Virus record (IMG/VR): IMGVR_UViG_3300009873_000001
Direction: 5' to 3' (one strand)
Origin: a virus
Taxonomy: Duplodnaviria; Caudoviricetes
DNA: 64,000 nucleotides
Part shown: positions 2,734 to 63,100 of the stretch, one piece after another
Layout: every line of letters starts with the position of its first letter
Position numbering within the stretch: position 1 is the first letter of the stretch
Made by a program: the position numbers and the translations under genes
Notes under the pieces: model-generated
Told to the model about the DNA's origin: nothing
Seen by the model: only the letters and a program-made list of their open reading frames with translations
Databases searched by the model: none

Positions 2734-3342
2734 ATGGCCTATCTAACGATGAGACGGCGCCTGCGTACCGGGCTGAGCGGTCTTGGGCTTGGCCCGGCTG
2801 AGGACGAGTATGAAGACTGCAGGCGACGGTATCCGGTCAGCGGGCTGCCGCGTGGTGACGCGCTAACGCCTAACGACCCATGCTTCAACCAGCTCATGGC
2901 CAGCAGAACTGAAGAGGCGGCGCGGCAGGAGGCGCTGCGTAAGGCGCGCTCCATGCCGCCGCCACCCGTCATGAGGCCCGCGCCTGCGCCTGCAGTATCC
3001 GGCAAGTCGCAGTACGAGATCTACGCAGAAGAGGCTGCGCAGGCCTCAAGAACTCAGGAGTCAGTTTACGATCGCGTCGCCCGCCTACGGGAAGAGCAGC
3101 GACTGAACGCGATCCGCAGCGACATGAACATTGAGCGGCCTGACAAGATCATGCCGATTCAAGTTCCGGGATCCATGAGCGACAAGCAGCAGTCCGAGTG
3201 GCTCATGTCGCTGGCTCTGCAGACCAAGCAAGAGCGCGACGCCGCCAGCGCAGCTCGAGGGCTCAAGACGGCAGCCGGGGTGGGCGCTGTGGCGCTGGTC
3301 GGGCTTGGCATGTTGTACCTGATCTTCAGGAACAAGAAGTAG
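2734..3342 (+). CDS. Membrane protein with CR...DPC module
   Basis: LSGLGLG, then GPAEDEYEDCRRR..LTPNDPCFNQLMASR; C-terminal TM. Confidence 0.75.
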   Translation: MAYLTMRRRLRTGLSGLGLGPAEDEYEDCRRRYPVSGLPRGDALTPNDPCFNQLMASRTEEAARQEALRKARSMPPPPVMRPAPAPAVSGKSQYEIYAEEAAQASRTQESVYDRVARLREEQRLNAIRSDMNIERPDKIMPIQVPGSMSDKQQSEWLMSLALQTKQERDAASAARGLKTAAGVGAVALVGLGMLYLIFRNKK

Positions 3343-4191: not shown

Positions 4192-5052
4192 ATGCCCGGC
4201 CCGATCATTTGGAACTGGACACCGCAGGGCCCAGGTTGGGATCGGCGCCCAGCCTTCATGCCTAGCGAGCAAGCGCAGTGGAGCCCAAATCCCGCCATTC
4301 CTCATGCCGGAGCGGCCGGCGTGACTGAAGTTGGCGGAGGAATGCTCAACAAGGGAGTAGGTCAGATGTACGGCATGAACGGCATGGGAGACATGTTCGT
4401 CTACCCGCAGGGCGCGGGGCCAGACGACTTCTACCGGCAGCAGATTGCGACCGGCGCCATGCCGGCGCCTGGGTCGGAGGAGTTCCAGGCGACAGGACCA
4501 AAGGAAGGGTCCATGGCCTGGGAGGCCGGCCCGGCCCCGTGGGAGCAGGGCCCCGCTGCTCCGCAGCAGCCGTTCCTGCCGCCTGACCAGGCGCCGGAAG
4601 CAATCGCGGCCATGGAGGCCTCGCGGCGTCGCGCTGCCGAGGTGAAGGCAGTCGAGGCCGCCAAGGCGGCCAAGGTCGCAGCTGACAACGCGATTCGCGC
4701 GGCCAACGCTGGCGCGCCCACCGTCGCCACGACCAACGCCGCCACGGCTCAGGCCGCTGCGAACGTGGCCGCGCGCATGGCCGTGTCGCCTGCTGGACAG
4801 CAGGCTGCTGCCATGGCCGCTGGCGAAGCGACCAAGGCTGTCGCGGCGGCCAACGTCGCCGTCGCGCGCGCGAACGGGAACGGCAACGGCCGAGCCAACG
4901 GAAACGGCAACGGCATGAGCGACTGGATGGAGCTCTCGGGCCTGGGCCAGAGCGCCGACGGGTTCGTGCAGAAGTACAAGTGGCCGCTCTTGCTCGGGGC
5001 CGGGCTGTTCGCGGCCTGGTACACGAAGGGCAAGCTCTGGGGCAAGGAGTAG
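4192..5052 (+). CDS. Ala-rich membrane protein with NG repeats and DWMELSGLG motif
   Basis: MNGMG, Ala-rich helix, NGNGNG x2, SDWMELSGLGQ, C-terminal TM. Confidence 0.75.
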   Translation: MPGPIIWNWTPQGPGWDRRPAFMPSEQAQWSPNPAIPHAGAAGVTEVGGGMLNKGVGQMYGMNGMGDMFVYPQGAGPDDFYRQQIATGAMPAPGSEEFQATGPKEGSMAWEAGPAPWEQGPAAPQQPFLPPDQAPEAIAAMEASRRRAAEVKAVEAAKAAKVAADNAIRAANAGAPTVATTNAATAQAAANVAARMAVSPAGQQAAAMAAGEATKAVAAANVAVARANGNGNGRANGNGNGMSDWMELSGLGQSADGFVQKYKWPLLLGAGLFAAWYTKGKLWGKE

Positions 5053-5056
5053 GCAC

Positions 5057-5359
5057 ATGGCCGAGACGGTCTGGGAGCCGAGCCCTGAAGAAGCAGTCGC
5101 TCGAGCTGTGGAGACACAGCGCGCTCGCGGACTCCTTCCTCGGCAGCATTCTCCGCGCGGCCAGGCATACGGCTACTACCGTCGTCCCATGACAGGGCCG
5201 GCCCTGTCGAGAGAGACGGGAGTCTACACGGATCAAGTCGCCGGCCTGGGCGGCGACGGCTCGGCCTTCGAGGGATCGAGCAAGGCGTTGATCCAGTGCG
5301 TGCTGGTCTTCGCGGCTGGATTCGGGATCGGGTACTTCTTCGCCAAGTCCAAGGCGTGA
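5057..5359 (+). CDS. Small membrane protein
   Basis: AGGAG RBS; VAGLG; C-terminal TM. Confidence 0.7.
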   Translation: MAETVWEPSPEEAVARAVETQRARGLLPRQHSPRGQAYGYYRRPMTGPALSRETGVYTDQVAGLGGDGSAFEGSSKALIQCVLVFAAGFGIGYFFAKSKA

Positions 5360-5368
5360 TCGAGAGTC

Positions 5369-5686
5369 ATGAACTATCAGCCCTGGGTCTCCGTCGAGCC
5401 TTCCGGGCTCATGCCCATGCGAAACGCGCCGACCGTTACTCCCCGGGAGGCGCGGCTTCGCTATTTGGGCGTGAGGGACGAGGCGCCTGAGCCCAGGTCT
5501 ACTCTGACTTCGGCCAGAGTGATCATTGCTCTCCTTGCTGCGGCGATAGCTGGCTATCACGGCTACAAGCGGAACAGCAGCTCAAAGCTGTGGGGCGCGC
5601 TGTGGGCTGTTGGTGGAGCCATGTGTCCGGCCGTGACGCTGCCGTTCGTCTTTTCGCAAGGCTTCGCCAAGTCGGCCAAGGAGTGA
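5369..5686 (+). CDS. Small two-TM membrane protein
   Basis: Two hydrophobic segments flanking YHGYKRN. Confidence 0.7.
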   Translation: MNYQPWVSVEPSGLMPMRNAPTVTPREARLRYLGVRDEAPEPRSTLTSARVIIALLAAAIAGYHGYKRNSSSKLWGALWAVGGAMCPAVTLPFVFSQGFAKSAKE

Positions 5687-10165: not shown

Positions 10166-10384
10166 ATGGCTAGCCGCGAGGAGTGTGCTGCTGGCTTTCG
10201 CGCGGACGGCTCGCGGCTCGCGTACGGAGATTGCGATTTCGTGGAGAGCGCGCGGGCGGCTCCATATCCGTCTCTCTATGTTCGGGAGTCCGGCACAGAC
10301 CTCATGAGCGGCTTCGGCAAGGGGTTGGTCTACGGTGCAATTGGAACCGTGGTGCTGTTCATTCTGATCCAAAGGCTCAGGTAA
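10166..10384 (+). CDS. Small membrane protein
   Basis: ATG 10166 just after upstream stop; MSGFG then C-terminal TM. Confidence 0.65.
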   Translation: MASREECAAGFRADGSRLAYGDCDFVESARAAPYPSLYVRESGTDLMSGFGKGLVYGAIGTVVLFILIQRLR

Positions 10385-10386
10385 CA

Positions 10387-11325
10387 GTGGACGTTCGTCA
10401 AAACCCACTGCTGGCGATCGTGGGCAACCCAGCTCGCGACATTCACCCGCTTGCTTTCGAAGCGCGCGACCGCTATCGCGCCGATATGAGCGCGGGGCAC
10501 GAAGAAGCCGCCGAATACTGGCGCGGGCAAGCCGGGGCGTTCTTCACCGGCAACAATCCGCTCGGCCCGATCTACTACTATCCAGTCAAACACCGCGGTC
10601 TTTTGATCGGAGCTATGCAGGCCGACGACGGCATCGACGCCATGCGCTCTGCTGAAGAAGAATTCGGCCCAGGTGTGAATCTCGGAGTGGCGTACAGGTC
10701 GCTGCAGGCGTTGATCGCGCGCGAAGGTCACCCGCCAGTTGGTCCGATTCCAGCTAAGAGGATAGGCTACTACTCCGAAGGCGGACCACTCTACGGCAAG
10801 AACCCCAGAAGGAATCCAGCGCTCGACGAAGAAGAGCTCGACATAGCCGAAGCGCAGCTCGCGCTCGCAGAGCGGCATAGAAGTTCTGTGGCGGGTTCCA
10901 AGTCGCGCGGTAAGGTCAAATCAAAGGGCAGGAAAGTCCGGGGAAACCCACAAGAGAAGAGGAAGCAGCGGCCGAAGGTCACGCGCTACAGCTTGGAGGA
11001 AGCGCGGAAGAAGTTCAGAGGCCTCGACGCTGCGATCAAGAAGTTCAAGAGATTCCATGGCTCGAGCAGCAATCCAGATCATGTCGACGTCTACCACCTG
11101 CCGGACGGCAGGAACGAAGAGCGCGTCGAGAACGTGCATGCAGCTCTGCACCGGACTCTTGAGACTCCTTACGTCGTACCCTGGAAGAGCAACAAGAAGG
11201 GCACCCTTTGGCTGCACGAGCATCCAGAAGGAGACGGGGCGCCTCTCGAGGTCCTCGACCCTGAGACCGGCACCACGCGGAAAATCGCGGGTGACTTCGT
11301 GGTCGACGACTGGTGGGAAAGCTAG
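10387..11325 (+). CDS. NP-motif basic modular protein
   Basis: GTG 10387; RQNP, GNP, NNP, KNPRRNP, RGNP, SNP; basic central part; AIKKFKRFHG domain. Confidence 0.7.
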   Translation: MDVRQNPLLAIVGNPARDIHPLAFEARDRYRADMSAGHEEAAEYWRGQAGAFFTGNNPLGPIYYYPVKHRGLLIGAMQADDGIDAMRSAEEEFGPGVNLGVAYRSLQALIAREGHPPVGPIPAKRIGYYSEGGPLYGKNPRRNPALDEEELDIAEAQLALAERHRSSVAGSKSRGKVKSKGRKVRGNPQEKRKQRPKVTRYSLEEARKKFRGLDAAIKKFKRFHGSSSNPDHVDVYHLPDGRNEERVENVHAALHRTLETPYVVPWKSNKKGTLWLHEHPEGDGAPLEVLDPETGTTRKIAGDFVVDDWWES

Positions 11326-11466
11326 AAGCAATGAGCTCACGAATTTGTGGACAGGTTCGAGAGTTCGGCTACGGTTGTACATGGAGTCACTTCCGTGTTG
11401 AGTCACACGCTTTTGATTCCTGTGCTGAATCCGCCGCGCGGAGCGAGCGGGAGGAGTAAGAGCAAA

Positions 11467-13341
11467 ATGGCGACGAAGTCGAAGTCGTCTCGCAAGCGCG
11501 GAAGGAAGGTCGCCAAGACCAGCTCGCGCACCCGCAAGGGTGGACGGAAGCTGACTTGGGTCGAGGCCGCGCGCTCGTCAGGCGCTGTCTATCCAGCGAG
11601 CTGGCCGGACGCCAAGAAGCGCGGGAAGGTCATGTCGCCCAATGACGCCTTGATCGCCAAGGTGCCGGTGGTCGGTTTCTTGAACCGCGCCATGATCAAG
11701 GGGTGGCACGAGAAGACCTCTGGTCTCGACACCTCGAACAAGCGCTACAAGAAGTCGAAGGCCTACAAGGGCGCGGTGGCTTGGCTCAAGCAGGGCTCGG
11801 CCCTGCTCAAGAAGCAGCGCCGCGAGCGCGGGTCGATCTGGTTGCGCGAACCGGCCTTCAAGTGGTCCGGTCGCGGAAAAGCAAAGAAGCGTGTGCGTGT
11901 TCCGGACTTCAGTGTGAAGGACGGCAAGCTGCGTTTCCGTGCGGGGCGCGGTCCTTACACTTCGCTCCGTCTCTACCGTGGTTTCGGGCCCACAAAGCGC
12001 CAGGTCGGCCGGTTGGTCGGCGGCGGTTTCGGGGGTCCACTGTCTGCGCCAGGAGGCACTGTGAAGCTGAACAGGTCCCGCAGGCGGAAGGGCCGTCGTG
12101 CCGGTCGCCGTCGTCGGGGTTCTTCCGTCATGCACGTCAAGTTCAACAAGCGCCGCCGCCGCGCGCGCCGCAACAAGGGACGGAAGAGCGGTGCCGGTTT
12201 CACCTCCGCCGTCTACAACAACAAGGGTCGGAAGAAGCGTCGTCGTGGCAAGCGTGTGGTGCTCGAGTCCGGCGCCAAGAAGCGCCGCCGCTCGATCAAG
12301 GTCTCTGGCAAGGGCCTCGTGGTCCGCACCAACCGTCGCCGTCGTCGCCGCCGCAGTCACGCGGCAGCTTCCAACCCGCGGCGTCGTCGCCGCCGGAGCC
12401 ACGTCCGCATGAACCGTCGCCGTCGTCGTCGCCGTTCTGTGGCCTCGAACCCCCGTCGTCGCCGCCGTCGCGCGGCTGCGAACAGCGGGCGTCGCCGCCG
12501 TCGCCGGCACTCGGTGAGGGCGAACCGCGGGCGCCGTGGCCGTCGCCGTCGGCACTACGCGATCGTCAAGCACAACCGCGGGCGTCGGCACCGTGTGCGG
12601 AGGAACCCGTTCCAGGCCCAGCTCGCGCAGCTGCGTGACGCTTCGTTCTGGATCACTGGCGGCCACATTCTCGTGGGCGCCGGTCTGACCGGTCTCGCGA
12701 GCCGGGCGATCATGAACTTCAAGTTCGCTCGCCAGGTCGCGTCCATGCGTGGCGCGGGTGGCGCGGTCGCTCGCGCTGGCTTGAACGTGGGCAGCACGCT
12801 GCTGGTCTCGGCGGCGGTCTCCTACCTCAAGCGCTTCGTGGGCGGTGGCCGCTACCTCGAGAACGTCGAGCGGAACGTGCTGGTCGGTGGCGTGGTCTAC
12901 ACGCTGGCCAACCTGGCGTACGACCTCTGGCCGGGTGGGGCTGAGAAGCTCATTCCTGGCGTGAGCGCGCCGCGCGGCAACCTGCTGCCACGCGCCTCGT
13001 CGGCCGCGGCCAGCGGGGAAATGGGCTGGCTCCCGGGCCGCAAGGCCTACCCTGGCGAGTACCCCGGTTACGGCGGGCTCGGCATGGTCATGAGCCCTGA
13101 GGACCTGGTCGCTGGCGAGTCCATGGCTCGGCAGGTGAACGAGTTCTCGGGTCTCGGCAGCTCGGGCGGCGCTCCGGTGCCGCTCGAGGATCTGCGCGGC
13201 TACCCCGGCCAGTACGGCGGTGGCATGAACGACTGGATGGAGCTCTCGGGCATGGGCGGAGGCATGGGCGACTGGGTCGAGATCGACCCGAACGCCAACC
13301 TCGTGAAGGCCGGGTTCGACCCGGGCACCGAGACGTTCTAG
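11467..13341 (+). CDS. Arg-rich (protamine-like) membrane-associated core protein
   Basis: GAGGAG RBS before ATG 11467; Asn-initiated poly-Arg blocks; three hydrophobic helices after RRNP; C-terminal GLG/GMG motifs. Confidence 0.75.
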   Translation: MATKSKSSRKRGRKVAKTSSRTRKGGRKLTWVEAARSSGAVYPASWPDAKKRGKVMSPNDALIAKVPVVGFLNRAMIKGWHEKTSGLDTSNKRYKKSKAYKGAVAWLKQGSALLKKQRRERGSIWLREPAFKWSGRGKAKKRVRVPDFSVKDGKLRFRAGRGPYTSLRLYRGFGPTKRQVGRLVGGGFGGPLSAPGGTVKLNRSRRRKGRRAGRRRRGSSVMHVKFNKRRRRARRNKGRKSGAGFTSAVYNNKGRKKRRRGKRVVLESGAKKRRRSIKVSGKGLVVRTNRRRRRRRSHAAASNPRRRRRRSHVRMNRRRRRRRSVASNPRRRRRRAAANSGRRRRRRHSVRANRGRRGRRRRHYAIVKHNRGRRHRVRRNPFQAQLAQLRDASFWITGGHILVGAGLTGLASRAIMNFKFARQVASMRGAGGAVARAGLNVGSTLLVSAAVSYLKRFVGGGRYLENVERNVLVGGVVYTLANLAYDLWPGGAEKLIPGVSAPRGNLLPRASSAAASGEMGWLPGRKAYPGEYPGYGGLGMVMSPEDLVAGESMARQVNEFSGLGSSGGAPVPLEDLRGYPGQYGGGMNDWMELSGMGGGMGDWVEIDPNANLVKAGFDPGTETF

Positions 13342-13353
13342 TTCAGTGCGGCG

Positions 13354-13382
13354 GCTCCGGGCGTTTCGCTGACGCCCGGAGC
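13354..13382 (+). terminator. GC-rich hairpin after the Arg-rich gene
   Basis: 11-bp stem gctccgggcgt/acgcccggagc with 7-nt loop; no U tract. Confidence 0.45.
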
Positions 13383-13513
13383 TGACCTCCAGAAAGTCCT
13401 GCGCGCTCTCAGAGCCGAAATCAACCGCTTGGCTGATTCCGGCGAGGTGCCTGTTTCTGTCCAGGCAATTGAAAGGTGACCCCGAATAGGGGCCCTAAGA
13501 GAGCAGTGCAAAG

Positions 13514-14152
13514 ATGACAATGCGCGTAGTACCCATTCCGGCGGTTGGCGCTGTCGGATCGCGTCCTCGAAAGGAACCGATCTATGACACTGAAGGCTGG
13601 GCGCCTGCAGTGCCGCAGCAGGCTGAGATCGTCACGTTCGTGAACTTCTCGGCCTTCAACACGGCGGGTCTGTCGCTGGCCAAGGCGTTTGGCCGTGACA
13701 CGAACCTCCAGGGTCAGAACGGCCTCCCGGCCGCTCACCACCACTACTGGTACGGGCTCCGTCTGAAGCTCCGTACCCTGGACGCCAACCTCTCGACCGC
13801 TCCGAACGTGGTCGTGCCCGAGCAGCTGAACCGAATCCGCGAGCTGAGCTTCTGTCAGTTCCGGTTCGCCAGCTCCGAGCTGATCACGATCCAGGCGGAC
13901 GAGGCGCCCAACGGCACGGGTCCGCAGTACATCAACACCACGCACGCGGGCGCGACCGTGCTGTCGCTCCCGTCCGGTGTGCCCACCCGCGGAAACGCCA
14001 AGGACGTGACGATCTCCGGCCGTCCGGTCGAGATCGTGGCGCTCGAAGCGTTCCGCGTCGTGATCGGCACCCCGGTCGGGATCACCCCGCTCGTGTCGGT
14101 GTATGCGAGCGTGATCCTCGAAGGGCTCCTCCTCCGCGGGATCACCGGCTAG
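13514..14152 (+). CDS. Putative single jelly-roll major capsid protein
   Basis: 212-aa beta-rich protein; EPIYDT..DTNL.GQNGLP..WYGLR..VILEGLLLR pattern; own hairpin-bounded unit; strongly GC3-biased codons; fold inferred. Confidence 0.55.
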   Translation: MTMRVVPIPAVGAVGSRPRKEPIYDTEGWAPAVPQQAEIVTFVNFSAFNTAGLSLAKAFGRDTNLQGQNGLPAAHHHYWYGLRLKLRTLDANLSTAPNVVVPEQLNRIRELSFCQFRFASSELITIQADEAPNGTGPQYINTTHAGATVLSLPSGVPTRGNAKDVTISGRPVEIVALEAFRVVIGTPVGITPLVSVYASVILEGLLLRGITG

Positions 14153-14177: not shown

Positions 14178-14216
14178 ACAGCGCCCCGCTCATGCGGGGC
14201 GCTGTCGTGTACAGGC
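14178..14216 (+). terminator. 12-bp hairpin plus conserved TGTACAGGC tail
   Basis: acagcgccccgc-tcat-gcggggcgctgt followed by cgtgtacaggc. Confidence 0.55.
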
Positions 14217-14389
14217 AGGGTGAATCACGCGACAAAATCACCCTCCCTGCTAGCCTGGTACGTAGAGGGGCAAATCCCTCAGACGGCTTCTCTTCTCTTG
14301 GCGGCCCGCCGGTCCTGTCCAAAAGACAGGCCGGCGTGGCCGCTGATCAAGAGTTAAGTAAGCCGTCGAGAAGAGAAGCAGGAGGGTTT

Positions 14390-15772
14390 GTGCAGCTTGC
14401 GCCGCACCCCATGAAGATCGTGTCGGGCTGGGGCTCGACCGCGACATGTGCGTATTGCCATGGATTCGCCAAGATCAAGCCATTGGTCCGCGGATCAGAC
14501 GGCTACATGCACATGAACCCGGACTTCGAAATGATCCGGCGCTTCCACATGCGCGCGGAGCCGTATGGGTTCTCGCTGCCCGCCGGTGCCACACAGGAGT
14601 TCGTGTTCACGGTCCCTGCCGAGGAAGAAAGCCTCGGCGACATGCTGATCAACGAGCTGCTGGCTGTGTTCACACCCGACACGGTGCGGAATATCAGCGT
14701 GCAGTTCCTCAGCCTTCAGACCGACCGCGTGTTCCAGAACGCCCCGGTGTTCAACACGCTCGTGTTCGGGAACAGCCACCTGAACTGTTGCCTGCCCTGC
14801 TGCACGCTCGTCCAGGCCACCAACTCGCTCAAGATGTCGGTCACGAACAACGAGGCGTTCCCGGTCGAGATTCGCGTGGTCGCGCGCGGGATCCGGTTCC
14901 TGCCCAAGAGCGACGAGCTCCGCACGCGAATGCTGATGTACTGGAACACGATCCCGAGCTATCCGTACTTCCAGACGCTGGACCAGCAGGAAGTGATCGT
15001 GCCCGGCGGCGGTGCTGCGTTCTCGGTGACGGCGCTCATGACGATCACCGGCACGGGTGACTTCGAAGTGAAGTGGCCGCGGGCCGAAATCATTGACGTG
15101 GGTCCGCCTGCCGATCCGAACCTGGTGCTCGTGAGTGTGGTCGAGCAGGTCGGCCGCGAGTGGCAGACGGATCCGATTCCGCTCACGAGCTTCGTGGCCA
15201 CGCCCACGCTGGTCGTGCCTGGCTTCCCTGGCGACCTGTTTCGCGCGGCCTCGGCCTGTCACTGCCCGCCCTACCCGCAGCTCTTCAAGCGCAACAACCG
15301 GATCCGTCACATTTTCACCAACAACAACCCGGTGGGTGTGGACGTGCGAGTGCGGCTGACCTACGCGGGCTGCTTCCATGAGGTCGACGAGTGCAAGCCG
15401 GGCCGATCCATGGACAGGATTCGCAGCCTCGAGCCGACGATCGGGCCGGTGCTTGTCACCCAGCGTGACATGTGCCCGCCTCACCCGGAGGGCTATACGC
15501 CGGAGGAGGAGTACTACAACGACCTTCCGTTCCAACCTGCAATCCCGCCGCCCATGCCGGCCGCACAGCCAATGCCCATGAGGGTGCAGGCGCCTGCGCG
15601 GCAGGGGCTGCGGTTCGTTCAGCAGGCACCGCTGCCGGGATCGCAGCGGATAGCGGCCTACCCGCAGGTTCAGCCGCAGCCGAACCCAGCCGGTCCGCCC
15701 GGACTCGGCGGAATGGTCAAGCGCGGTGAGCTCTACTGGGATCCGTTCGCCAAGGCGTGGAAGAGGGCGTAG
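14390..15772 (+). CDS. Putative double jelly-roll-like capsid protein A
   Basis: GGAGG RBS before GTG 14390; two internally similar beta-rich halves; Pro-rich tail with GLGG; paralog of next gene. Confidence 0.55.
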   Translation: MQLAPHPMKIVSGWGSTATCAYCHGFAKIKPLVRGSDGYMHMNPDFEMIRRFHMRAEPYGFSLPAGATQEFVFTVPAEEESLGDMLINELLAVFTPDTVRNISVQFLSLQTDRVFQNAPVFNTLVFGNSHLNCCLPCCTLVQATNSLKMSVTNNEAFPVEIRVVARGIRFLPKSDELRTRMLMYWNTIPSYPYFQTLDQQEVIVPGGGAAFSVTALMTITGTGDFEVKWPRAEIIDVGPPADPNLVLVSVVEQVGREWQTDPIPLTSFVATPTLVVPGFPGDLFRAASACHCPPYPQLFKRNNRIRHIFTNNNPVGVDVRVRLTYAGCFHEVDECKPGRSMDRIRSLEPTIGPVLVTQRDMCPPHPEGYTPEEEYYNDLPFQPAIPPPMPAAQPMPMRVQAPARQGLRFVQQAPLPGSQRIAAYPQVQPQPNPAGPPGLGGMVKRGELYWDPFAKAWKRA

Positions 15773-17124
15773 TGCTCGACCGCGATCCAATCTACGGCAT
15801 GGGCGACTGCCGCACGTTTGCGGACATGCCGCCCCTCGTCCACTGGGAAGACGGGTCGACCTGTATCAACCCGGACTTCGAGCACAACTGGCGCTTCCAC
15901 CGCTCGGCGCTGGCGAAGGATCCCACCGGCCCCTTGGCGCAAGGGCTCGTGCCAGTAGTCACGATCCCTGCCGGCGGGAACGTCGACTTCCAGCTCAAGG
16001 TCGATCGGGAAGAAAACGGCATGGGCCACTTCCTGATCAACGAGCTGTTCATGCTCACGGATCCGACCGACGCCAACAACATTTCGATCACGATCAAGGA
16101 CCAGCAGAGCGACCGGATGTACATGAGCAATCCGGTTTTCAGGCCGCTGCTGTTCAGCACGACGTTCCTCTCGGCGTGCCTGACGTGTCCGATCATGCTC
16201 TTCCCGGACCAGACGTTGATCATTCGCGTCAACAACCTGGAGGCCTTCCCGGTCACGATGCGGATCAACGCGCGCGGCAAGCGCTTCATGCCCTATCACG
16301 ACTGGAAGCTCGTGCAGGAAATGGAGAATTGCTGGTCGCACATGGTCAGCAACCCGTTCTGGCTGACGCTGGACGACACGCAGATCACGATCCCGGCCGG
16401 TGGTCGCGTGCGGTCTCAAATGAGCGTGCCTGGCGGGTGGTTCTTCTACAACCAGCCGCGGACCATGGTCACCGTGGCCGGGGATCTAGTCGTGGGCAGC
16501 GACATTCTCGTCGAAGTCACCGACGGCCGAATCGGCAAGCGGCTCATGGACGGGCCGATCTCGCTGGGTAGCCATTACGCCACGCCCACGCTGACCGTGC
16601 CTGGCTTCCCGGGCAACACGTATTCCGCAGCTACGGCTCTGCACTGCCCGCCGCAGTCCATGTTCTTCCGGCCCACGACGCGACTGATTCACGACTTCTT
16701 CAACACTGGCCCGGCTGATGCGGTCGTGCGACTGACCTACGAGGGCTGCCTCACCTTTGCAGACAAGTGCCCGCCGCACCTCGACGTCGAGCGTGAGCGG
16801 CGGATAGATCTCATGTTTGCTTCCAATCCGCTGTACGTGGACATGACCCAAGAAGAAGGAGGCTGCCAGGCGCCGGCCGACCTACCCAAGCCGCGCGTCA
16901 CAGCCATGTGGCGCAGGCAGCGTGGGAACGCCCTTCCGCCCCACCTGGCGTTCGTTCGCTATGAGGACCAGCGCGTGGAGGTCGTGGTGCGCGATCCGCG
17001 CACGAATGAAGTCGTCCGACCCGCGGTGGCGCATGAGATCCCGCTCTGGGCGAGACTGAGCTCGGAAGGCGGGCTCGAGGGGCTCGGGTCTCGCCCTGCG
17101 CAGGGCGAATGGGAGGCGCTGTGA
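15772..17124 (+). CDS. Putative double jelly-roll-like capsid protein B
   Basis: GTG overlaps upstream TAG; shares NPDFE, LINEL, EAFPV, ATPTL.VPGFPG, HCPP and VRLTY.GC with protein A; LEGLG near C-terminus. Confidence 0.55.
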   Translation: MLDRDPIYGMGDCRTFADMPPLVHWEDGSTCINPDFEHNWRFHRSALAKDPTGPLAQGLVPVVTIPAGGNVDFQLKVDREENGMGHFLINELFMLTDPTDANNISITIKDQQSDRMYMSNPVFRPLLFSTTFLSACLTCPIMLFPDQTLIIRVNNLEAFPVTMRINARGKRFMPYHDWKLVQEMENCWSHMVSNPFWLTLDDTQITIPAGGRVRSQMSVPGGWFFYNQPRTMVTVAGDLVVGSDILVEVTDGRIGKRLMDGPISLGSHYATPTLTVPGFPGNTYSAATALHCPPQSMFFRPTTRLIHDFFNTGPADAVVRLTYEGCLTFADKCPPHLDVERERRIDLMFASNPLYVDMTQEEGGCQAPADLPKPRVTAMWRRQRGNALPPHLAFVRYEDQRVEVVVRDPRTNEVVRPAVAHEIPLWARLSSEGGLEGLGSRPAQGEWEAL

Positions 17125-27908: not shown

Positions 27909-28285
27909 AGTACGAGGCCACGCACGTCGTAGACCCTAGAGCCTTTGAGCAGCTGGTCCGTGTGGCCGGCGGGCGCGAGGAGCAATGGCAGAAGAAGCCG
28001 TTCTCTTACCGAGGCGCTTTGTTTTACCCGGGCATGATCGGGCTCTACCAGATTACAGCCGCTGAGCTGGTGCCAGCAGAGCAGTACCGAGGCAAGGCCT
28101 TCAGTGACCCATTCGGATCGTTCTCGCGGCCTGGGTTCTTGAAGCGGATCGGGCAGCGGTCGTACGTGTTCGCCGGATTTCACCGATTCGTGCTCGAGGG
28201 CACGCACCTCTCCGCGCTAGAACCAGAAGAAGGGCGTCCGGCGCCGCCTGACGGAAGTCAGGCAACGCTGTTCGCGGAGCCATGA
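27905..28285 (+). CDS. Hypothetical protein with C-terminal QATLF
   Basis: ATGA overlap with both neighbours. Confidence 0.65.
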   Translation: MKYEATHVVDPRAFEQLVRVAGGREEQWQKKPFSYRGALFYPGMIGLYQITAAELVPAEQYRGKAFSDPFGSFSRPGFLKRIGQRSYVFAGFHRFVLEGTHLSALEPEEGRPAPPDGSQATLFAEP

Positions 28286-28848
28286 CCATGCAGCCAGATT
28301 ATGCCGCCCTGTTGGCTTTTTATGAACGAGAGGGGCCGCCTGCACGGCGAGCCAAGAAGAAGCTCAAGAAGGAGCGCGCCGTCAAGAGGCGCGTAGCCAA
28401 GAAGAGGGCCGCAGCGCTAATTCCGCCGCCAGAGCCACGCGCGGCCAAGACGAGAAGGGCAAGGAGGCGCCCGGTTGAGATCGGGCGACGCGGGTGGGTG
28501 ACAACTAGGATCGCGCTTTCCATGAAGGACTCTGGTCCGCAAGAGGTCAAGGCGCAGGTACTAGGGCCGAAGGGCGTGTTTGCCATTCACGCCAATACGG
28601 ATCAGCGCGGGCTCTATGATCTCACGCATGTGCCCAGCGGAGCTCGCCTCAATAGCGCTTCGGCCGGCGCTCGCGGCCTAGCCAAGCTCAAGAAGCTGGC
28701 GCAGAAACTCGAGCTGGCGATCGACTGGGAAGATCCCAGGATCGTGCGTGATCACCGGCGCATGCTTGAAAGCGGCCAGGATTCGCGCTTCATGCGTGAG
28801 CTAGCCGGCAAGGTAGCCGAGGTGCGTCGACGCGTGCTTGGGCGGTGA
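28282..28848 (+). CDS. Basic hypothetical protein
   Basis: Lys/Arg-rich N-terminus; LTHVPSG motif. Confidence 0.65.
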   Translation: MTMQPDYAALLAFYEREGPPARRAKKKLKKERAVKRRVAKKRAAALIPPPEPRAAKTRRARRRPVEIGRRGWVTTRIALSMKDSGPQEVKAQVLGPKGVFAIHANTDQRGLYDLTHVPSGARLNSASAGARGLAKLKKLAQKLELAIDWEDPRIVRDHRRMLESGQDSRFMRELAGKVAEVRRRVLGR

Positions 28849-45821: not shown

Positions 45822-46793
45822 ATGGCTGGCGAGAACTACTACAAGAACATTCGCGGCCTCGTCGGAACCGATTTTCGCATTGCTGCAGCCGCGCCCGCCG
45901 CTACGGCCAAGACATTCGGCGACGACGAAGGCACGGCAATCGAGCTCACGAGCGGGGCCTTCACGATCTTACGAGTTGAAGAGCCGCGCTTCCAGAACGG
46001 AGCGAACTTCGACCTGGTCAACAAGTTGGCCGCGCCTGGCGTGGCGTTGCTCGGGGATATCGGCTATCTCAGTGCTCCGTTCGCCGATCCGTCGATTACG
46101 AATCCGTGCGACGGGATCCTGTTCGGAGCCGTGCCTGGACTAGAAGTCGGGGCTGGCGTGCCGGTGTTTGCTGTGGCCGACATGATGGACGCGGTCAGCG
46201 GACCGTTCACGAGACTGACCTGCAGTGCGGCTGCCAGCAACTGGTTCGGCATTCGAGACACGCTCGGTCTCACGAATAACTTCGTGCGTGGGTTCACGCC
46301 GCGCCAGGCGATCATGAACATGCGCCTGGCTGTGCCGGACTATTCGAGCCTTTCGTTCTTCGTAGGTGGATTCGAGGGGGCAAGCGCTGCTCTATCCTCC
46401 GGCGCTGACCCCACGGCAGCCGGGCTTACCGGGGCTGCGGCCTTTGTCAAACTCGACACCGACGCCAACTGGAACGCGTTCGTCAGACTGCCTGGGTCGG
46501 CAGTGCCAACCAAAATTGACCTGGGCGTCGCGGCCGGAGCAGGGACGGTGTACATCTTCTTGCTTGAGTGCCTTCTGGCAACCGGAGGGGCTGGCAGCAG
46601 CGGAGACGTGCGATTCTCGATCTACAACCTCACAGGATTCACGCTTCTCGGTCAGACCACGATCAGCGGCTTCCCAGCCTTTTCGATTTCCAACTATCTG
46701 TTCACCGCGGGCGCCTTCACGGCCACAGCCGCCTCGCGCTCCATGGACGTCTACAACGCCATGGTCGTGCAGCAGAACAGCTTCGACGCCTAG
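45822..46793 (+). CDS. Spike/lectin-like protein C1
   Basis: MAGEN start; paralog of 50517 and of the A proteins. Confidence 0.7.
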   Translation: MAGENYYKNIRGLVGTDFRIAAAAPAATAKTFGDDEGTAIELTSGAFTILRVEEPRFQNGANFDLVNKLAAPGVALLGDIGYLSAPFADPSITNPCDGILFGAVPGLEVGAGVPVFAVADMMDAVSGPFTRLTCSAAASNWFGIRDTLGLTNNFVRGFTPRQAIMNMRLAVPDYSSLSFFVGGFEGASAALSSGADPTAAGLTGAAAFVKLDTDANWNAFVRLPGSAVPTKIDLGVAAGAGTVYIFLLECLLATGGAGSSGDVRFSIYNLTGFTLLGQTTISGFPAFSISNYLFTAGAFTATAASRSMDVYNAMVVQQNSFDA

Positions 46794-48484
46794 TTCCCGG
46801 TCAGGCCAGCCGCCGTCAGGCCGTCGGCCTGCGCCAGCTCGCGCAGCCAGGCTGGAAACGGCTGAAGCGCCTGCATGAAGCCCTCGGGCGTGGAGTTCAG
46901 CGCGCGCTGCCGGTAGTCGGCCAACTCGAAGGCAGATACACCCGCGTCACCAGGCCTGGCGGCAAGAATCAACTGCCTGAGTTCATACATGGTCTTGTAG
47001 GCCTTGTGGATTCTGCCTGGCGATCCGCCGTGAACGTCGCTCAACAACTTGTCTGCTGGCTTGAGGTCTAGATATTGACGGTGATTGATCCTGGCCTCAA
47101 GTAAGTCAGCAAGGCTGGCAAGTGACCCTGGAGCCTCCGGGGCCGGCCATGAATTCTCGCCCCAGCGAACGTGCATGTACGAATTGATCACGACAGGGGG
47201 AGCCTCGCCGGCCTTGACGAGCCACTCCAAGTCAGCGCGGGCAGCTGGATCTTCGAGTTTGGCTGGAACGTACAGCCTGATCAGGCGCGCGACCTTGTTC
47301 TGCGGGTCTAGTTCCACAGCGCGGTCCAGCGGGGGCAAGGACTCCTCCATCTTGCCGAGATCCTGCAGCGCCCCGGCCTTGACAATCAAGGCGCTGACGT
47401 AGTCCGGCTCGAGTTTCAACGCGTCCTCAGCCCTTTCGAGCAGCACACGCGCGAGATCCGGCGAAGCGGTCCAACCGTAAACCCGTTCCTCCATGCGTTC
47501 AGGGATCAGAATCCTGGCTTGCTCGGCTGGGCTCCCGGAGAGCGGCTCCTCGAGCGAACGCTCGGGCTTGAACGCCAGTAGCGCGGCGGCAGCCGCCACG
47601 GTCACTGCGAGCGCGACGAGGAACGCTGGGCGGGCCGGGCGGCGGACATCCGGATCGCGACGCGGCGCCGAGGCAGGTGCAGCCAACGCCTCCGCCAGCT
47701 CTTCGGCGCTCTGCCACCGCCTCGCCGGCTCCTTCTCCAGGCACTTCAGGATCACCGCCTCCAGCCACTCCGGGATCTCCGGCCTGATCGAGCGCGGCGG
47801 CACCGGCGTGCGGTCTAGCACGCCATCGAGCACCTCGATTCCGCTGTTGCCGCGGAAGGGTAGCTCGCCCGTGACGAGCTGGTAGAGCGTGGCGCCGAGG
47901 CCCCACACGTCGGTCCACGGTCCGATCGCGCGCTTGTCGCCGCGGGCCTGCTCGGGCGCCATGAAGGCCGGGGTGCCCATGATCTCGCCCGTCTGCGAGA
48001 GCGAGCGCGAGGCCTTGAGATCGGTGTTCAGGATCTTCACCAGCCCCAGATCGATCACGACCGGCTGGCCGTCGGGCCGGAGGATCACGTTCGCCGGCTT
48101 CAGGTCGCGGTGAATGATCCCGTGCTCGTGGGCGTGGGTGAGAGCGCTGGCGATCTCGCGCCCGATCTGCGCCACCTGATCGGGCGGGAGCGGCCCGTCG
48201 CGGTCGAGCTTCTGCTTCAGCGACTCACCCGGCACCAGCTCCATGGCCAGCCAGGGCTGACCGCGCGCGTTCACGCCGGCTTCCAGAATCTTGGCGATCC
48301 CGGGGTGATCGAGGGTCTGCCCAGCCCTCAGCTCCTGCTGCCAGCGGCGGACCTCCTCGGGGTCGGCGTTGAAGAGGGTCTTCAGCGCGACCTGCTGGCC
48401 GGCCTGGTCGACGGCCAGGTGGACGACGCCCATGCCGCCGCGGGCGAGCTCACGGAGAGGGCGGTGGGGAAGAGTTTTGATCAC
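46790..48484 (-). CDS. Hanks-type Ser/Thr protein kinase with TM and TPR
   Basis: ARGGMGVV, VALK, HRDLKPAN, DLG, GTPAFMAPEQ, DVWGLG; TM then TPR-like repeats; start GTG 48484 inferred. Confidence 0.92.
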   Translation of the reverse strand: MIKTLPHRPLRELARGGMGVVHLAVDQAGQQVALKTLFNADPEEVRRWQQELRAGQTLDHPGIAKILEAGVNARGQPWLAMELVPGESLKQKLDRDGPLPPDQVAQIGREIASALTHAHEHGIIHRDLKPANVILRPDGQPVVIDLGLVKILNTDLKASRSLSQTGEIMGTPAFMAPEQARGDKRAIGPWTDVWGLGATLYQLVTGELPFRGNSGIEVLDGVLDRTPVPPRSIRPEIPEWLEAVILKCLEKEPARRWQSAEELAEALAAPASAPRRDPDVRRPARPAFLVALAVTVAAAAALLAFKPERSLEEPLSGSPAEQARILIPERMEERVYGWTASPDLARVLLERAEDALKLEPDYVSALIVKAGALQDLGKMEESLPPLDRAVELDPQNKVARLIRLYVPAKLEDPAARADLEWLVKAGEAPPVVINSYMHVRWGENSWPAPEAPGSLASLADLLEARINHRQYLDLKPADKLLSDVHGGSPGRIHKAYKTMYELRQLILAARPGDAGVSAFELADYRQRALNSTPEGFMQALQPFPAWLRELAQADGLTAAGLTGN

Positions 48485-48643
48485 ACCCGAAGCATAACCA
48501 CTTTTTGCTGTATCCGCAACCTGTTGCGGCAGATAACTTTGTGATCCAATTGGCTTTGTGGTCAGGGCTGGCCCGCCGTGGAGAATAGGTACTGAAGGCC
48601 GGCAGCCGGCGCGCGCCACGGGCGCAGATGAGGGGAGGCCAGC

Positions 48644-49573
48644 ATGGTCGCTGAGAACTTTTTCAGGGACTGGCGAGGGACGTCTAGGCCAAGCTTCTCC
48701 CTCATTTTGCCCACAGCCTCTTCGCGTCTCACCGCCTCGGCTGGCGAGCTGTTGGTGGAAACCACAGCCGGAGCCCCGGCCTTCCTTGGATCGGCTGACC
48801 TGGATCTGGGCGCCGGGTTCAACGCAGAGGTTGTGAACAAGTTCTCCAACCGCTTCTATCACTTGCTCGGGCAGTACGGCACGGCCACAGCTCCGTTCTT
48901 CGGAGCGACTGTCGTAGGCGACTCGCTCCTCAAGGCCACGCAGCCTGGGTTCGAGGGCGGCGCAGGACCGGTGCTCACCGCCACTGACCTGCCAGGCCCG
49001 GCTACGAACCTGTCGCTGGCCGGCATGGCCGGTCGCTGGTACGGAATGCGCAGCATAGTAGCCGTCCCCGGCGTGGGTGAATTCAGCCGAGGAGTCGGCC
49101 TCGCTGGTTTTCTGTACGCCTCAATCAACATACCCACCACTCTCGACCAGTCTTTCTTCATTGGCGGCTTGGAAGACGTGAGCGGCGCGCTGGCCAGCGG
49201 CCCTGACCCGTCAGCCGCGGCCATGAGCGGAGCCATGGCGATCGTGAAGCTAGCCGGGGATCCGACCTGGAACGCCTTCGCTCGAGCTCCGGGTTCGGCC
49301 GTGCCGTCAAAGATTGCGATCGGTCCGGCAGTGGCCACCGGCACGACCTACCAGCTCTTTATTGAGGCCTCTTCTACTTCCGGCGCCGTGCGCTTCACGG
49401 TTCTAGACGCGGCCTCTACAGTCTTGGGGCAAATCGTGTTTCCCGGCGCTGCGTTCGGAGGCGCCGCCAATCACTATCACTTCAACGTCGGCGCGTACAC
49501 AGCGGTAGCTGCAGCGCGCGATTTCGACTTCTTTAGCATGTCGGCCGTGAGGTTCGACAGCTACGACATTTGA
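48644..49573 (+). CDS. Spike/lectin-like protein A2
   Basis: MVAEN start; LLKATQPGFEGGAGPV shared with A1. Confidence 0.7.
   Translation: MVAENFFRDWRGTSRPSFSLILPTASSRLTASAGELLVETTAGAPAFLGSADLDLGAGFNAEVVNKFSNRFYHLLGQYGTATAPFFGATVVGDSLLKATQPGFEGGAGPVLTATDLPGPATNLSLAGMAGRWYGMRSIVAVPGVGEFSRGVGLAGFLYASINIPTTLDQSFFIGGLEDVSGALASGPDPSAAAMSGAMAIVKLAGDPTWNAFARAPGSAVPSKIAIGPAVATGTTYQLFIEASSTSGAVRFTVLDAASTVLGQIVFPGAAFGGAANHYHFNVGAYTAVAAARDFDFFSMSAVRFDSYDI
49174..49299 (+). repeat. 126-bp near-identical repeat, copy 2
   Basis: Matches 44473-44598. Confidence 0.9.
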
Positions 49574-62077: not shown

Positions 62078-63100
62078 ATGTCCTTCCTGACTGCTCCGAC
62101 TTCCAGAGACGTGGCTGTGGCCCGCGGCTTCGGGGGCATGGGCGGCGTGCTTCAAATGGCCGAGCTCGTCCCCTCCTCCGGCGCCTACCCGGCCCCTCCG
62201 AACTGGCCGCCGCCTGTGGGCGTGGCCTATCACGAGCCCGTAGGCAAGAGCACCGGGCTCAGCGACTGGATGGAGCTGTCCGGCATGGGGCAGGGCGGGC
62301 GCGCGGTTCCAGCGCGGCGAATCCGCAACTTCGAGACGGCCAGCGAGCTGGAGGCCTCGCCTGAGGTCTTCGGCCTGGGAGCCGGAGAGGGTCGCGCGGT
62401 GCCGGTGCGCATGCTTCGCCGCGGTGAATTCGAAACGCCGCAGCAGCTCATGAACACGCCCGAGTTCTTCGGCATGGGCGCGCGGCACGGCGTCGTGCGG
62501 CGCCGGCCGGCGGTGTCGAACGGGAACTACCTGGGCGTCGCGCCGCCGTCCGGTCGCCCGGTGCCCGTCAGCTCGCTCGAGCGCGGGGAGTTCGAGACCG
62601 GCGGCCAGCTGGTCTCGACGAGCCGCGTGTTCCCCACGGCACAGCGCCGCCGTCAGAGCCGCTACCGGACCGGCCTGAGCGGACTCGGGCAAGGCTACGC
62701 CGACCCGAACATTCCGCTGCCGAGCTTCTACGCCGATCCCAGCAACGTGCCTCTGCCGGAATACAAGGTCGGCGGCAAGGTCGTGGCCCGCTACGCGGCT
62801 CCGTCCGAGGCCACGGTCAGGACCGCGTACCTCGACCGCCAGGTCGAGCTGCCGGCGTTCTACGAGCACCCGCAGCTCGGCCCGTGGGGCGTCGATCCGC
62901 GGGTGGCGTACCAGTACTGGTGGGCTCAGCAAATGGCCCTGCAGTCGGCGCCGTACGCGACGCCCATGGCGGTGTGGGGTTCGCCCGGCTTCGTGCCCAC
63001 CACGCCAGCGCTGCCAGCGACTCAAGTCGCGCGTCCGGCAGCGTTCGACCCGTACACGAACGCCTTCCCGGTGGCCGGCACGGCAGTCGAGAACTTCTAA
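62078..63100 (+). CDS. GLG-punctuated repeat protein with DWMELSGMG
   Basis: GGAGG RBS; three GR.VP...FET repeats separated by GLG/GMG; ends VENF. Confidence 0.7.
   Translation: MSFLTAPTSRDVAVARGFGGMGGVLQMAELVPSSGAYPAPPNWPPPVGVAYHEPVGKSTGLSDWMELSGMGQGGRAVPARRIRNFETASELEASPEVFGLGAGEGRAVPVRMLRRGEFETPQQLMNTPEFFGMGARHGVVRRRPAVSNGNYLGVAPPSGRPVPVSSLERGEFETGGQLVSTSRVFPTAQRRRQSRYRTGLSGLGQGYADPNIPLPSFYADPSNVPLPEYKVGGKVVARYAAPSEATVRTAYLDRQVELPAFYEHPQLGPWGVDPRVAYQYWWAQQMALQSAPYATPMAVWGSPGFVPTTPALPATQVARPAAFDPYTNAFPVAGTAVENF

Follow-up and report, generated by a model that had tools for sequence, protein, structure and literature searches.

We describe a gene in a 64,000-nucleotide stretch of viral DNA (IMG/VR record IMGVR_UViG_3300009873_000001; hereafter the window) that encodes a 648-residue, strongly basic protein, here called the polycation. 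Its coding sequence (CDS) spans positions 11395..13341 on the + strand, stop codon included, and lies between two conserved neighbours on the same strand, the gene of an Asn-Pro-rich 'cargo' protein upstream (10183..11325) and that of a 212-residue, beta-rich putative shell protein downstream (13514..14152). Residue numbers are throughout those of the 648-residue protein counted from the GTG at 11395.

The + strand carries a single long open reading frame (ORF) that ends with the stop at 13341 and gives the Arg-rich product described in an earlier reading made from the letters alone (the sequence-only reading). That this frame is the translated one, on which the earlier proposal hinged, is supported by its G+C content at third codon positions (GC3), which is 0.78-0.90 over its four parts and like that of the other window genes (0.67-0.86), and by the 38 database representatives that can be aligned in it; in the two competing frames without stops in the CGN-rich stretch, GC3 is 0.61-0.65 and GC1 is inflated. 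The start codon had to be revised: the ATG at 11467, previously taken as the start, lies 24 codons (72 nt) too late. All full-length relatives begin with M-(x)-LIPVLNPP, the window copy of this motif is found upstream of ATG 11467, and the leader is kept at the protein level with synonymously changed codons in seven loci. Because of this conserved leader and a Shine-Dalgarno-like GGAG (11383..11386, +) 8 nt 5' of the GTG, we assign the gene to 11395-13341; GAGG or GGAG is present at the same spacing before the starts in four related loci (L002, L003, L007 and L008). Public gene calls shorten members of the family at an internal ATG, e.g. P0006 begins 13 codons past the leader encoded in L002:9995-11848. 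Naturally 'split' genes (P0013 and P0018) were ruled out, both beginning at the ends of short contigs; several of the short 'members' are pieces cut off at the ends of contigs, the basic repeats probably interrupting assembly.

From its N-terminus (all features on the + strand), the protein consists of a family-conserved leader that ends in LIPVLNPP, i.e. in Asn-Pro-Pro (residues 1-14; 11395..11436), a basic linker and a family-specific basic N-domain (residues 48-232; 11536..12090), a disordered poly-basic region of 13 blocks, 11 of which are started by Asn (residues 225-404; 12067..12606), the boundary motif RRNP (residues 402-405; 12598..12609), a hydrophobic three-helix bundle that is a possible membrane domain (residues 405-520; 12607..12954), and an acidic, Gly-rich tail of 128 residues with a net charge of -8 (residues 521-648; 12955..13338). 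In the AlphaFold2 (AF2) model (33 sequences) residues 50-145 of the N-domain are helical with a predicted local distance difference test (pLDDT) of 82-94 and are followed by a short beta part, and the bundle helices (416-440, 454-482 and 491-519) have a pLDDT of about 90. The N-domain alignment (48-232) gave no match among PDB sequences or Pfam. The tail contains SPEDLVAGES, YGGLG, FSGLG, GYPGQYGGG and DWMELSGMG (including LSGMG) and ends with an invariant E-x-F; nowhere is the family better conserved than in the segment from SPEDLVAGES to this end. RRNP, the three hydrophobic segments and the tail motifs YGGLG, FSGLG and LSGMG, all named in the sequence-only reading, were found in the ORF. 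We considered whether the basic region is a recent tandem array at the DNA level and dropped this, since the one repeat detected is weak (33 nt, 2.7 copies, 78% identity).

An exhaustive phmmer search of 1.84 billion representatives identified 38 relatives with E <1e-3, 15 of them with E <1e-30, and all are uncharacterised metagenomic sequences. Scanning Pfam-A with the polycation returned zero families at E <= 0.01 (adenovirus core families included), no match was obtained in PHROG, NCBIfam or PDB, and tblastn of its C-terminal part and of the 212-residue protein against 50,697 GenBank phage records gave no match. Foldseek returned nothing with E <1 from the PDB, a shape search of the ESM Atlas gave template modelling (TM) scores of at most 0.27, and in IMG/VR a single-protein scan found no relative and an alignment-based scan found one 245-kb genome. 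By these comparisons the polycation founds an uncatalogued family, and its want of homology to any catalogued one places it outside the adenoviral, protamine and ascovirus P64 families. Neither the vs2C-ad motifs (PF08793) nor the SPSQRRSTS-type repeats that define P64 are present, there being no Pfam match and the units being marked by Asn, not Ser-Pro. The polycation is also not a protamine, i.e. a small protein with a majority of Arg: Arg makes up 37% of a 198-residue segment over the basic blocks of a 648-residue protein, and the relatives use Lys and Arg about equally; Arg runs of four to seven are present. The family, with its basic region, RRNP, helical bundle and SPEDLVAGES-type tail with an E-x-F end, gives a handle for spotting this group of viruses in metagenomes.

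The Arg/Lys-rich stretch has a net charge of about +134. Among full-length members the sequence before the boundary Asn varies between 200 and 590 residues with a Lys:Arg ratio of 0.45-1.5, and its net charge is +82 to +160 (mostly +110 to +140); distant members have Lys/Ala-rich stretches in place of the Arg blocks. Almost all members whose tail is complete have an acidic one (net -3 to -12), and the isoelectric point (pI) is 11.3-12.0. Charge is therefore kept while sequence, length and Lys:Arg ratio drift, as expected for DNA charge neutralisation. No other product of the window comes near the polycation (+131) in basicity; the second (28282-28848, 188 residues, 24% Lys/Arg, no Pfam match) has a net charge of +27. 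CGT and CGC together make up 82% of the polycation's Arg codons (53% for eleven reference genes), and neither CGA nor AGA is used, from which we infer the pattern of a heavily translated gene. Roughly 2,000 copies at +131 each would neutralise half of the approximately 546,000 phosphates of a genome assumed to be 273 kb.

Dividing the basic region after each Asn shows that 11 of its 13 basic blocks are started by Asn, two of these by Asn-Pro. Fourteen runs of at least three Lys/Arg residues are present and eight have an Asn within three residues upstream, where 2.0 are expected; none of 20,000 shuffles of the non-basic residues reached eight. The Asn-started Arg blocks noted in the sequence-only reading hold up statistically. 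In the window copy each of the last seven Asn-delimited units spans 10-17 residues and has a charge of +6 to +8, and in 17 of 18 members the Asn spacing is more regular than in shuffled sequences (medians of 9-17 residues). Asn-Pro is three to eight times more frequent than expected from composition in most members, with a consensus of two basic residues, Asn-Pro and then four to five basic residues. The boundary residue, Asn404, never varies in an alignment of 15 members, and over 33 sequences its conservation is at least 90%. The residue after it is Pro in most members (invariant among seven close ones) and Gln or Gly in a few; since this Pro varies and the window blocks mostly have none, the constrained residue is Asn, not Asn-Pro.

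The gene order around the polycation is fixed: the cargo gene (10183), the polycation, the 212-residue gene, one or two tandem-domain genes and the gene at 17109 (tblastn of the window genes against fetched loci). It was seen wholly or partly in 12 independent loci (L001-L004, L006-L010 and L012-L014), persists down to relatives in which the polycation is only 28-30% identical, and the polycation directly precedes the 212-residue gene wherever a contig carries both, which is the outcome of the synteny check proposed in the sequence-only reading. The claim that the gene lies directly upstream of the capsid gene stands for the adjacency, and the neighbour itself is no more than a putative shell protein with no fold or family match. 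It is 63-99% identical where the polycation is 28-51% identical, belongs to 73 database clusters (all unnamed), and its AF2 model (six sequences) is all-beta and poor, with a pLDDT of 38. The tandem-domain genes (14192-15772 and 15757-17124) are paralogs, each built of two beta-rich halves that are homologous to one another (hhalign probability 96.4%, E 1e-9), an architecture compatible with a double-barrel shell protein. Because the distant relatives L013 and L014 carry a single tandem-domain gene, the two in the window stem from a duplication specific to its lineage. By hhalign the 212-residue family is not related to either tandem-domain half. Profiles of both families matched nothing in PDB, Pfam or NCBIfam; an Atlas feature search gave a weak lead to PM2 P2 domains with a score of only 0.77, and nothing usable. 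A single or double jelly-roll fold, as in internal-membrane viruses of the PRD1/PM2/STIV type, is thus a candidate at most for these neighbours. Complex prediction for the 212-residue protein and the tail (521-648) scored 0.02, which is below the mark and speaks neither for nor against binding.

One of these loci is a complete genome of 245,276 bp with direct terminal repeats, in which Pfam models for HK97-type capsids, TerL (two models), portal, and legumain and S78 proteases gave no match. The A32 packaging ATPase (PF04665) was likewise without a match there, and a weak hit to FtsK_SpoIIIE (PF01580, E 0.014) was dropped, being unconfirmed by Pfam.

Since its gene always lies just before the putative shell genes, the polycation is most likely a genome-neutralising particle protein. 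More specifically, we give about an even chance to its being an abundant structural polycation of the virion interior that neutralises the double-stranded DNA (dsDNA) genome of a large uncultured, probably bacterial virus, and the most economical reading is that it is packaged and compacts a genome of 250-270 kb. Residues 1-404, i.e. the small basic folded domain and some 180 disordered residues, would bind this DNA non-specifically, neutralise part of its charge and allow compaction. The three-helix bundle would anchor it within the particle to a surface of lipid or protein, most likely an internal membrane, at about even odds, and the conserved acidic tail may supply docking or processing motifs common to other putative virion proteins. 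Finally, the near-invariant boundary Asn is the best candidate for a maturation cut, which, speculatively, would free the DNA-bound part from its anchor; such cleavage at Asn404 would reconcile anchoring with DNA ejection.

Whether the packaged protein would be cut is a separate matter, and here the strongest competing view, to which we assign a substantial probability somewhat short of even, is that the DNA condenser stays intact and that Asn(-Pro) forms turns capping N-P-basic-basic units, as a non-phosphorylatable counterpart of the S/T-P-K/R-K/R motif. Asx-Pro turns and the minor-groove SPKK-type motif of histone H1, sperm histones and the hepatitis B virus (HBV) core tail are well established. 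In the polycation family 99 of the 137 Asn-Pro sites fall inside basic runs, the regular Asn spacing suggests repeated binding units, and searches of the complete relative with the adenain, legumain and S78 Pfam models recognised no protease. Such turns would not explain why the Pro is often lost and the Asn kept, with nine of the 11 Asn-started blocks of the window having no Pro, and they make little sense between the non-basic modules of two upstream proteins, where Asn-Pro is also found.

The sequence-only reading had suggested cleavage into protamine-like peptides, which is compatible with our data and speculative. Taken further, to a single membrane-docked precursor that is cut specifically at Asn, by itself or by a protease not recognised here, into Mu-like peptides of 10-17 residues, with cutting at Asn404 freeing a genome-delivery module and an Asn(-Pro) maturation code common to the two upstream 'cargo' proteins, it would be the first protamine-type condensing system of a bacterial virus; we regard this as improbable. 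With respect to adenovirus-like processing, LSGMG fits the first of the two adenain consensus sites, (M/I/L)XGX-G and (M/I/L)XGG-X, and the 245-kb complete genome of a relative gave no match to adenain (PF00770). The tail motif DWMELSG[LM]G (13231..13257, +) recurs in two otherwise unrelated window proteins (4921-4944 and 62264-62287), and its position shifts within the tails of the polycation family, a behaviour often seen in short motifs for docking or processing. Self-cleavage at Asn-Pro has precedents in virions (mu1/VP5, Asn42-Pro43; PMC9148132) and in the bacterial RsgI (PMC10328401), in both cases in folded contexts. The polycation has the conserved Asn-Pro of such autocleaving modules at 404/405; in the AF2 model most of its Asn(-Pro) sites fall in disordered sequence, and Pfam and structure searches found no homology to the mu1 or RsgI domains.

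The earlier description of the hydrophobic part as a membrane domain is favoured by three hydrophobic helices of 25-29 residues with low hydrophobic moments, whose cores carry zero or one charge (loops, two to six), and they resemble the bundles of membrane proteins, being rich in small residues like channel helices (MscS, MotA/PomA). Three observations weigh on the other side. Maxima of Kyte-Doolittle (KD) hydropathy over 19 residues are only 1.1-1.4 in the window copy, below threshold, and 11 of 32 relatives reach 1.6; the hydropathy is clearly under that of the virus's own membrane anchors; and a domain of +134 raises a topology problem for a DNA tether in the lumen. By the positive-inside rule a strongly positive domain stays on the cytoplasmic face of the host membrane, and in the PRD1-type assembly model this face ends up facing the capsid, not the DNA lumen. 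The conflict means that the particle assembles differently, that the bundle is no classical three-span anchor, or that the protein enters with the DNA. The proposal that the protein tethers the genome to an internal membrane survives in one half, a DNA-neutralising role in the particle being the best explanation, and meets the topology problem in the other. We put integration of the bundle in a membrane at roughly fifty-fifty; alternatively, the helices pack through their small residues and are buried in a homo-oligomer or against the shell.

A lipid-containing particle is plausible because six consecutive genes of small membrane proteins lie just upstream (44-745, 749-1129, 1705-2292, 2734-3342, 5057-5359 and 5369-5686). 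Five of the six products have a single strong C-terminal anchor (KD 2.0-2.35) and one has two weaker segments (KD 1.7); a Pfam scan of four of them gave no match. They are a candidate membrane set of the particle, upstream of the block of cargo, polycation and shell genes.

The resemblance of the bundle to MscS and MotA/PomA helices, and the near-invariant Asn404 directly before it, also fit a genome-delivery (pilot or penetration) protein, in which the Gly/Ala-rich helices would be membrane-active or channel-forming and released at the invariant Asn on entry, with poly-Arg escorting the DNA through the host envelope. Known Asn-Pro autocleavages of virions do release membrane-penetration peptides (PMC9148132, PMC10328401; compare reovirus mu1N and nodavirus gamma), and the place of the gene among virion genes is conserved; nevertheless, a family-wide charge of about +130 far exceeds what a pilot protein needs, and the cleavage is a candidate only, the known cases occurring in folded contexts whereas the modelled boundary lies at the edge of disorder, so that we hold this role to be unlikely. 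Least probable of all, in our estimate, is a non-packaged, membrane-associated nucleic-acid binder (for host nucleoid compaction or silencing, a membrane site of replication or assembly, or RNA or polyphosphate binding), whose basic N-side and bundle would suit general polyanion binding by composition and a cytoplasm-facing membrane protein with no topology problem, but which has against it the strictly conserved place in a structural-looking block in 12 loci, the tail motif common to other putative virion proteins and a codon bias suggesting very high expression.

Some further features of these loci are worth recording. Right after the polycation stop codon is a strong GC hairpin without a U tract (13350..13388, +), and the 186-nt intergenic region (13335-13520) has a folding z of -4.96. 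No tRNA genes were found in the window. Group I introns (Rfam RF00028, 62-67 bits) split the 212-residue homologue at the same codon (approximately residue 77) in three loci (L003:6827-7123, L007:3862-4153 and L008:7756-8052), and L008 carries another insert, about 290 nt long, behind residue 23; the window copy is uninterrupted. In L002 and L003 a free-standing ORF of about 540 residues with LAGLIDADG homing-endonuclease and Mom-family domains (Pfam; L002:12778-14412 and L003:7719-9329) lies between the 212-residue and tandem-domain genes; it is absent from the window, and an ORF in L008 (8648-10258) matches these two, the Pfam domain matches themselves covering the L002 and L003 copies only. 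On the - strand the window encodes a Ser/Thr protein kinase with a strong membrane helix (46790-48862; Pkinase, E 1.7e-42). Because of this kinase and of several basic-basic-x-Ser sites after the Arg runs of the polycation, control of its DNA binding by phosphorylation, by analogy with baculovirus P6.9, is conceivable.

The general view is that bacterial viruses package their DNA naked, with small cations balancing its charge, and the proteins known to serve as dedicated polycations come from viruses of eukaryotes (adenovirus, baculovirus, ascovirus and chloroviruses). The genes of the virus studied here bear bacterial signals (GTG starts, Shine-Dalgarno sites and gene coupling), and none of the tailed-phage marker families searched for was found in its complete relative. 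A conserved 70-kDa polycation in such a 250-kb virus would show that protein-assisted condensation has also evolved in bacterial viruses, where it is perhaps needed for very large tailless particles, and the regular Asn punctuation with its invariant boundary Asn predicts a new processing code in concrete terms that experiments can address.

Compared to known systems, the polycation is like the adenovirus proteins pVII, pX/Mu, V and VI in that Arg-rich polypeptides would be packed with dsDNA in a tailless icosahedral virion and precursors would be trimmed at short Gly-containing motifs; its units of 10-17 residues and +6 to +8 are like Mu, and it would unite in one chain the DNA binding of VII, Mu and V, a hydrophobic membrane-active part as in VI and a C-terminal peptide ending in Phe as in pVIc. 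It differs in being one 70-kDa chain instead of several small proteins, in having no sequence homology and an apparently bacterial host, and in that the complete relative has no adenain homologue and the candidate cut residue, Asn, is not one used by adenain. The internal proteins IPI-III of phage T4 are basic proteins packed with DNA, as proposed here, and enter the prohead by means of a short conserved N-terminal leader that is subsequently cleaved off, a prohead-targeting role that the conserved eight-residue leader before Asn-Pro could play by analogy; T4, however, is tailed with an HK97-fold capsid, its prohead protease cuts after Glu, and IPI-III are small and only mildly basic. Protein J of phiX174 combines a basic DNA-binding part with a hydrophobic/aromatic C-terminus that docks on the coat and tethers the genome, and both proteins end in Phe, but J has 38 residues, belongs to a phage without a membrane that has 5 kb of single-stranded DNA, and shows no homology. 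Protamines, baculovirus P6.9, VP15 of white spot syndrome virus (WSSV) and the C-terminal domain of HBV core also have runs of four to seven Arg with short neutral spacers and neutralise DNA charge non-specifically, as proposed for the polycation; in contrast to the polycation with its Asn-marked spacers, these are small proteins or short tails (<15 kDa) with 50-80% Arg, often regulated by Ser phosphorylation.

A conserved Asn-Pro beside a membrane-active or membrane-spanning part is found in orthoreovirus mu1 and aquareovirus VP5 (Asn42-Pro43; PMC9148132) and in RsgI (PMC10328401), where the folded domain supplies the catalytic environment, whereas the sites in the polycation are candidates that mostly lie in disordered sequence. 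The membrane-containing PBCV-1 has abundant DNA-binding core proteins, which the polycation would resemble in function (PMC5593192). Ascovirus P64 is a virion protein of 64 kDa and pI 12 whose Arg-rich repeat domain has been shown experimentally to condense DNA, and the two have in common a large size (64-70 kDa), a pI of about 12, a family-specific folded N-part followed by short C-terminal tandem Arg-rich units, and a large dsDNA virus with an inner membrane, putative in the present case (PMC6163548); unlike the polycation, P64 has Ser/Arg-rich, phosphorylatable units and vs2C-ad motifs in its N-part, has neither hydrophobic bundle nor acidic tail, and is not homologous. Taken together, the polycation most likely belongs with the viral polycationic core proteins, as one of a kind not described for bacterial viruses. 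It stands out among them by being so large, by joining the basic stretch to a hydrophobic bundle and an acidic tail, by being punctuated with Asn and by occurring in a virus whose genes carry bacterial signals.

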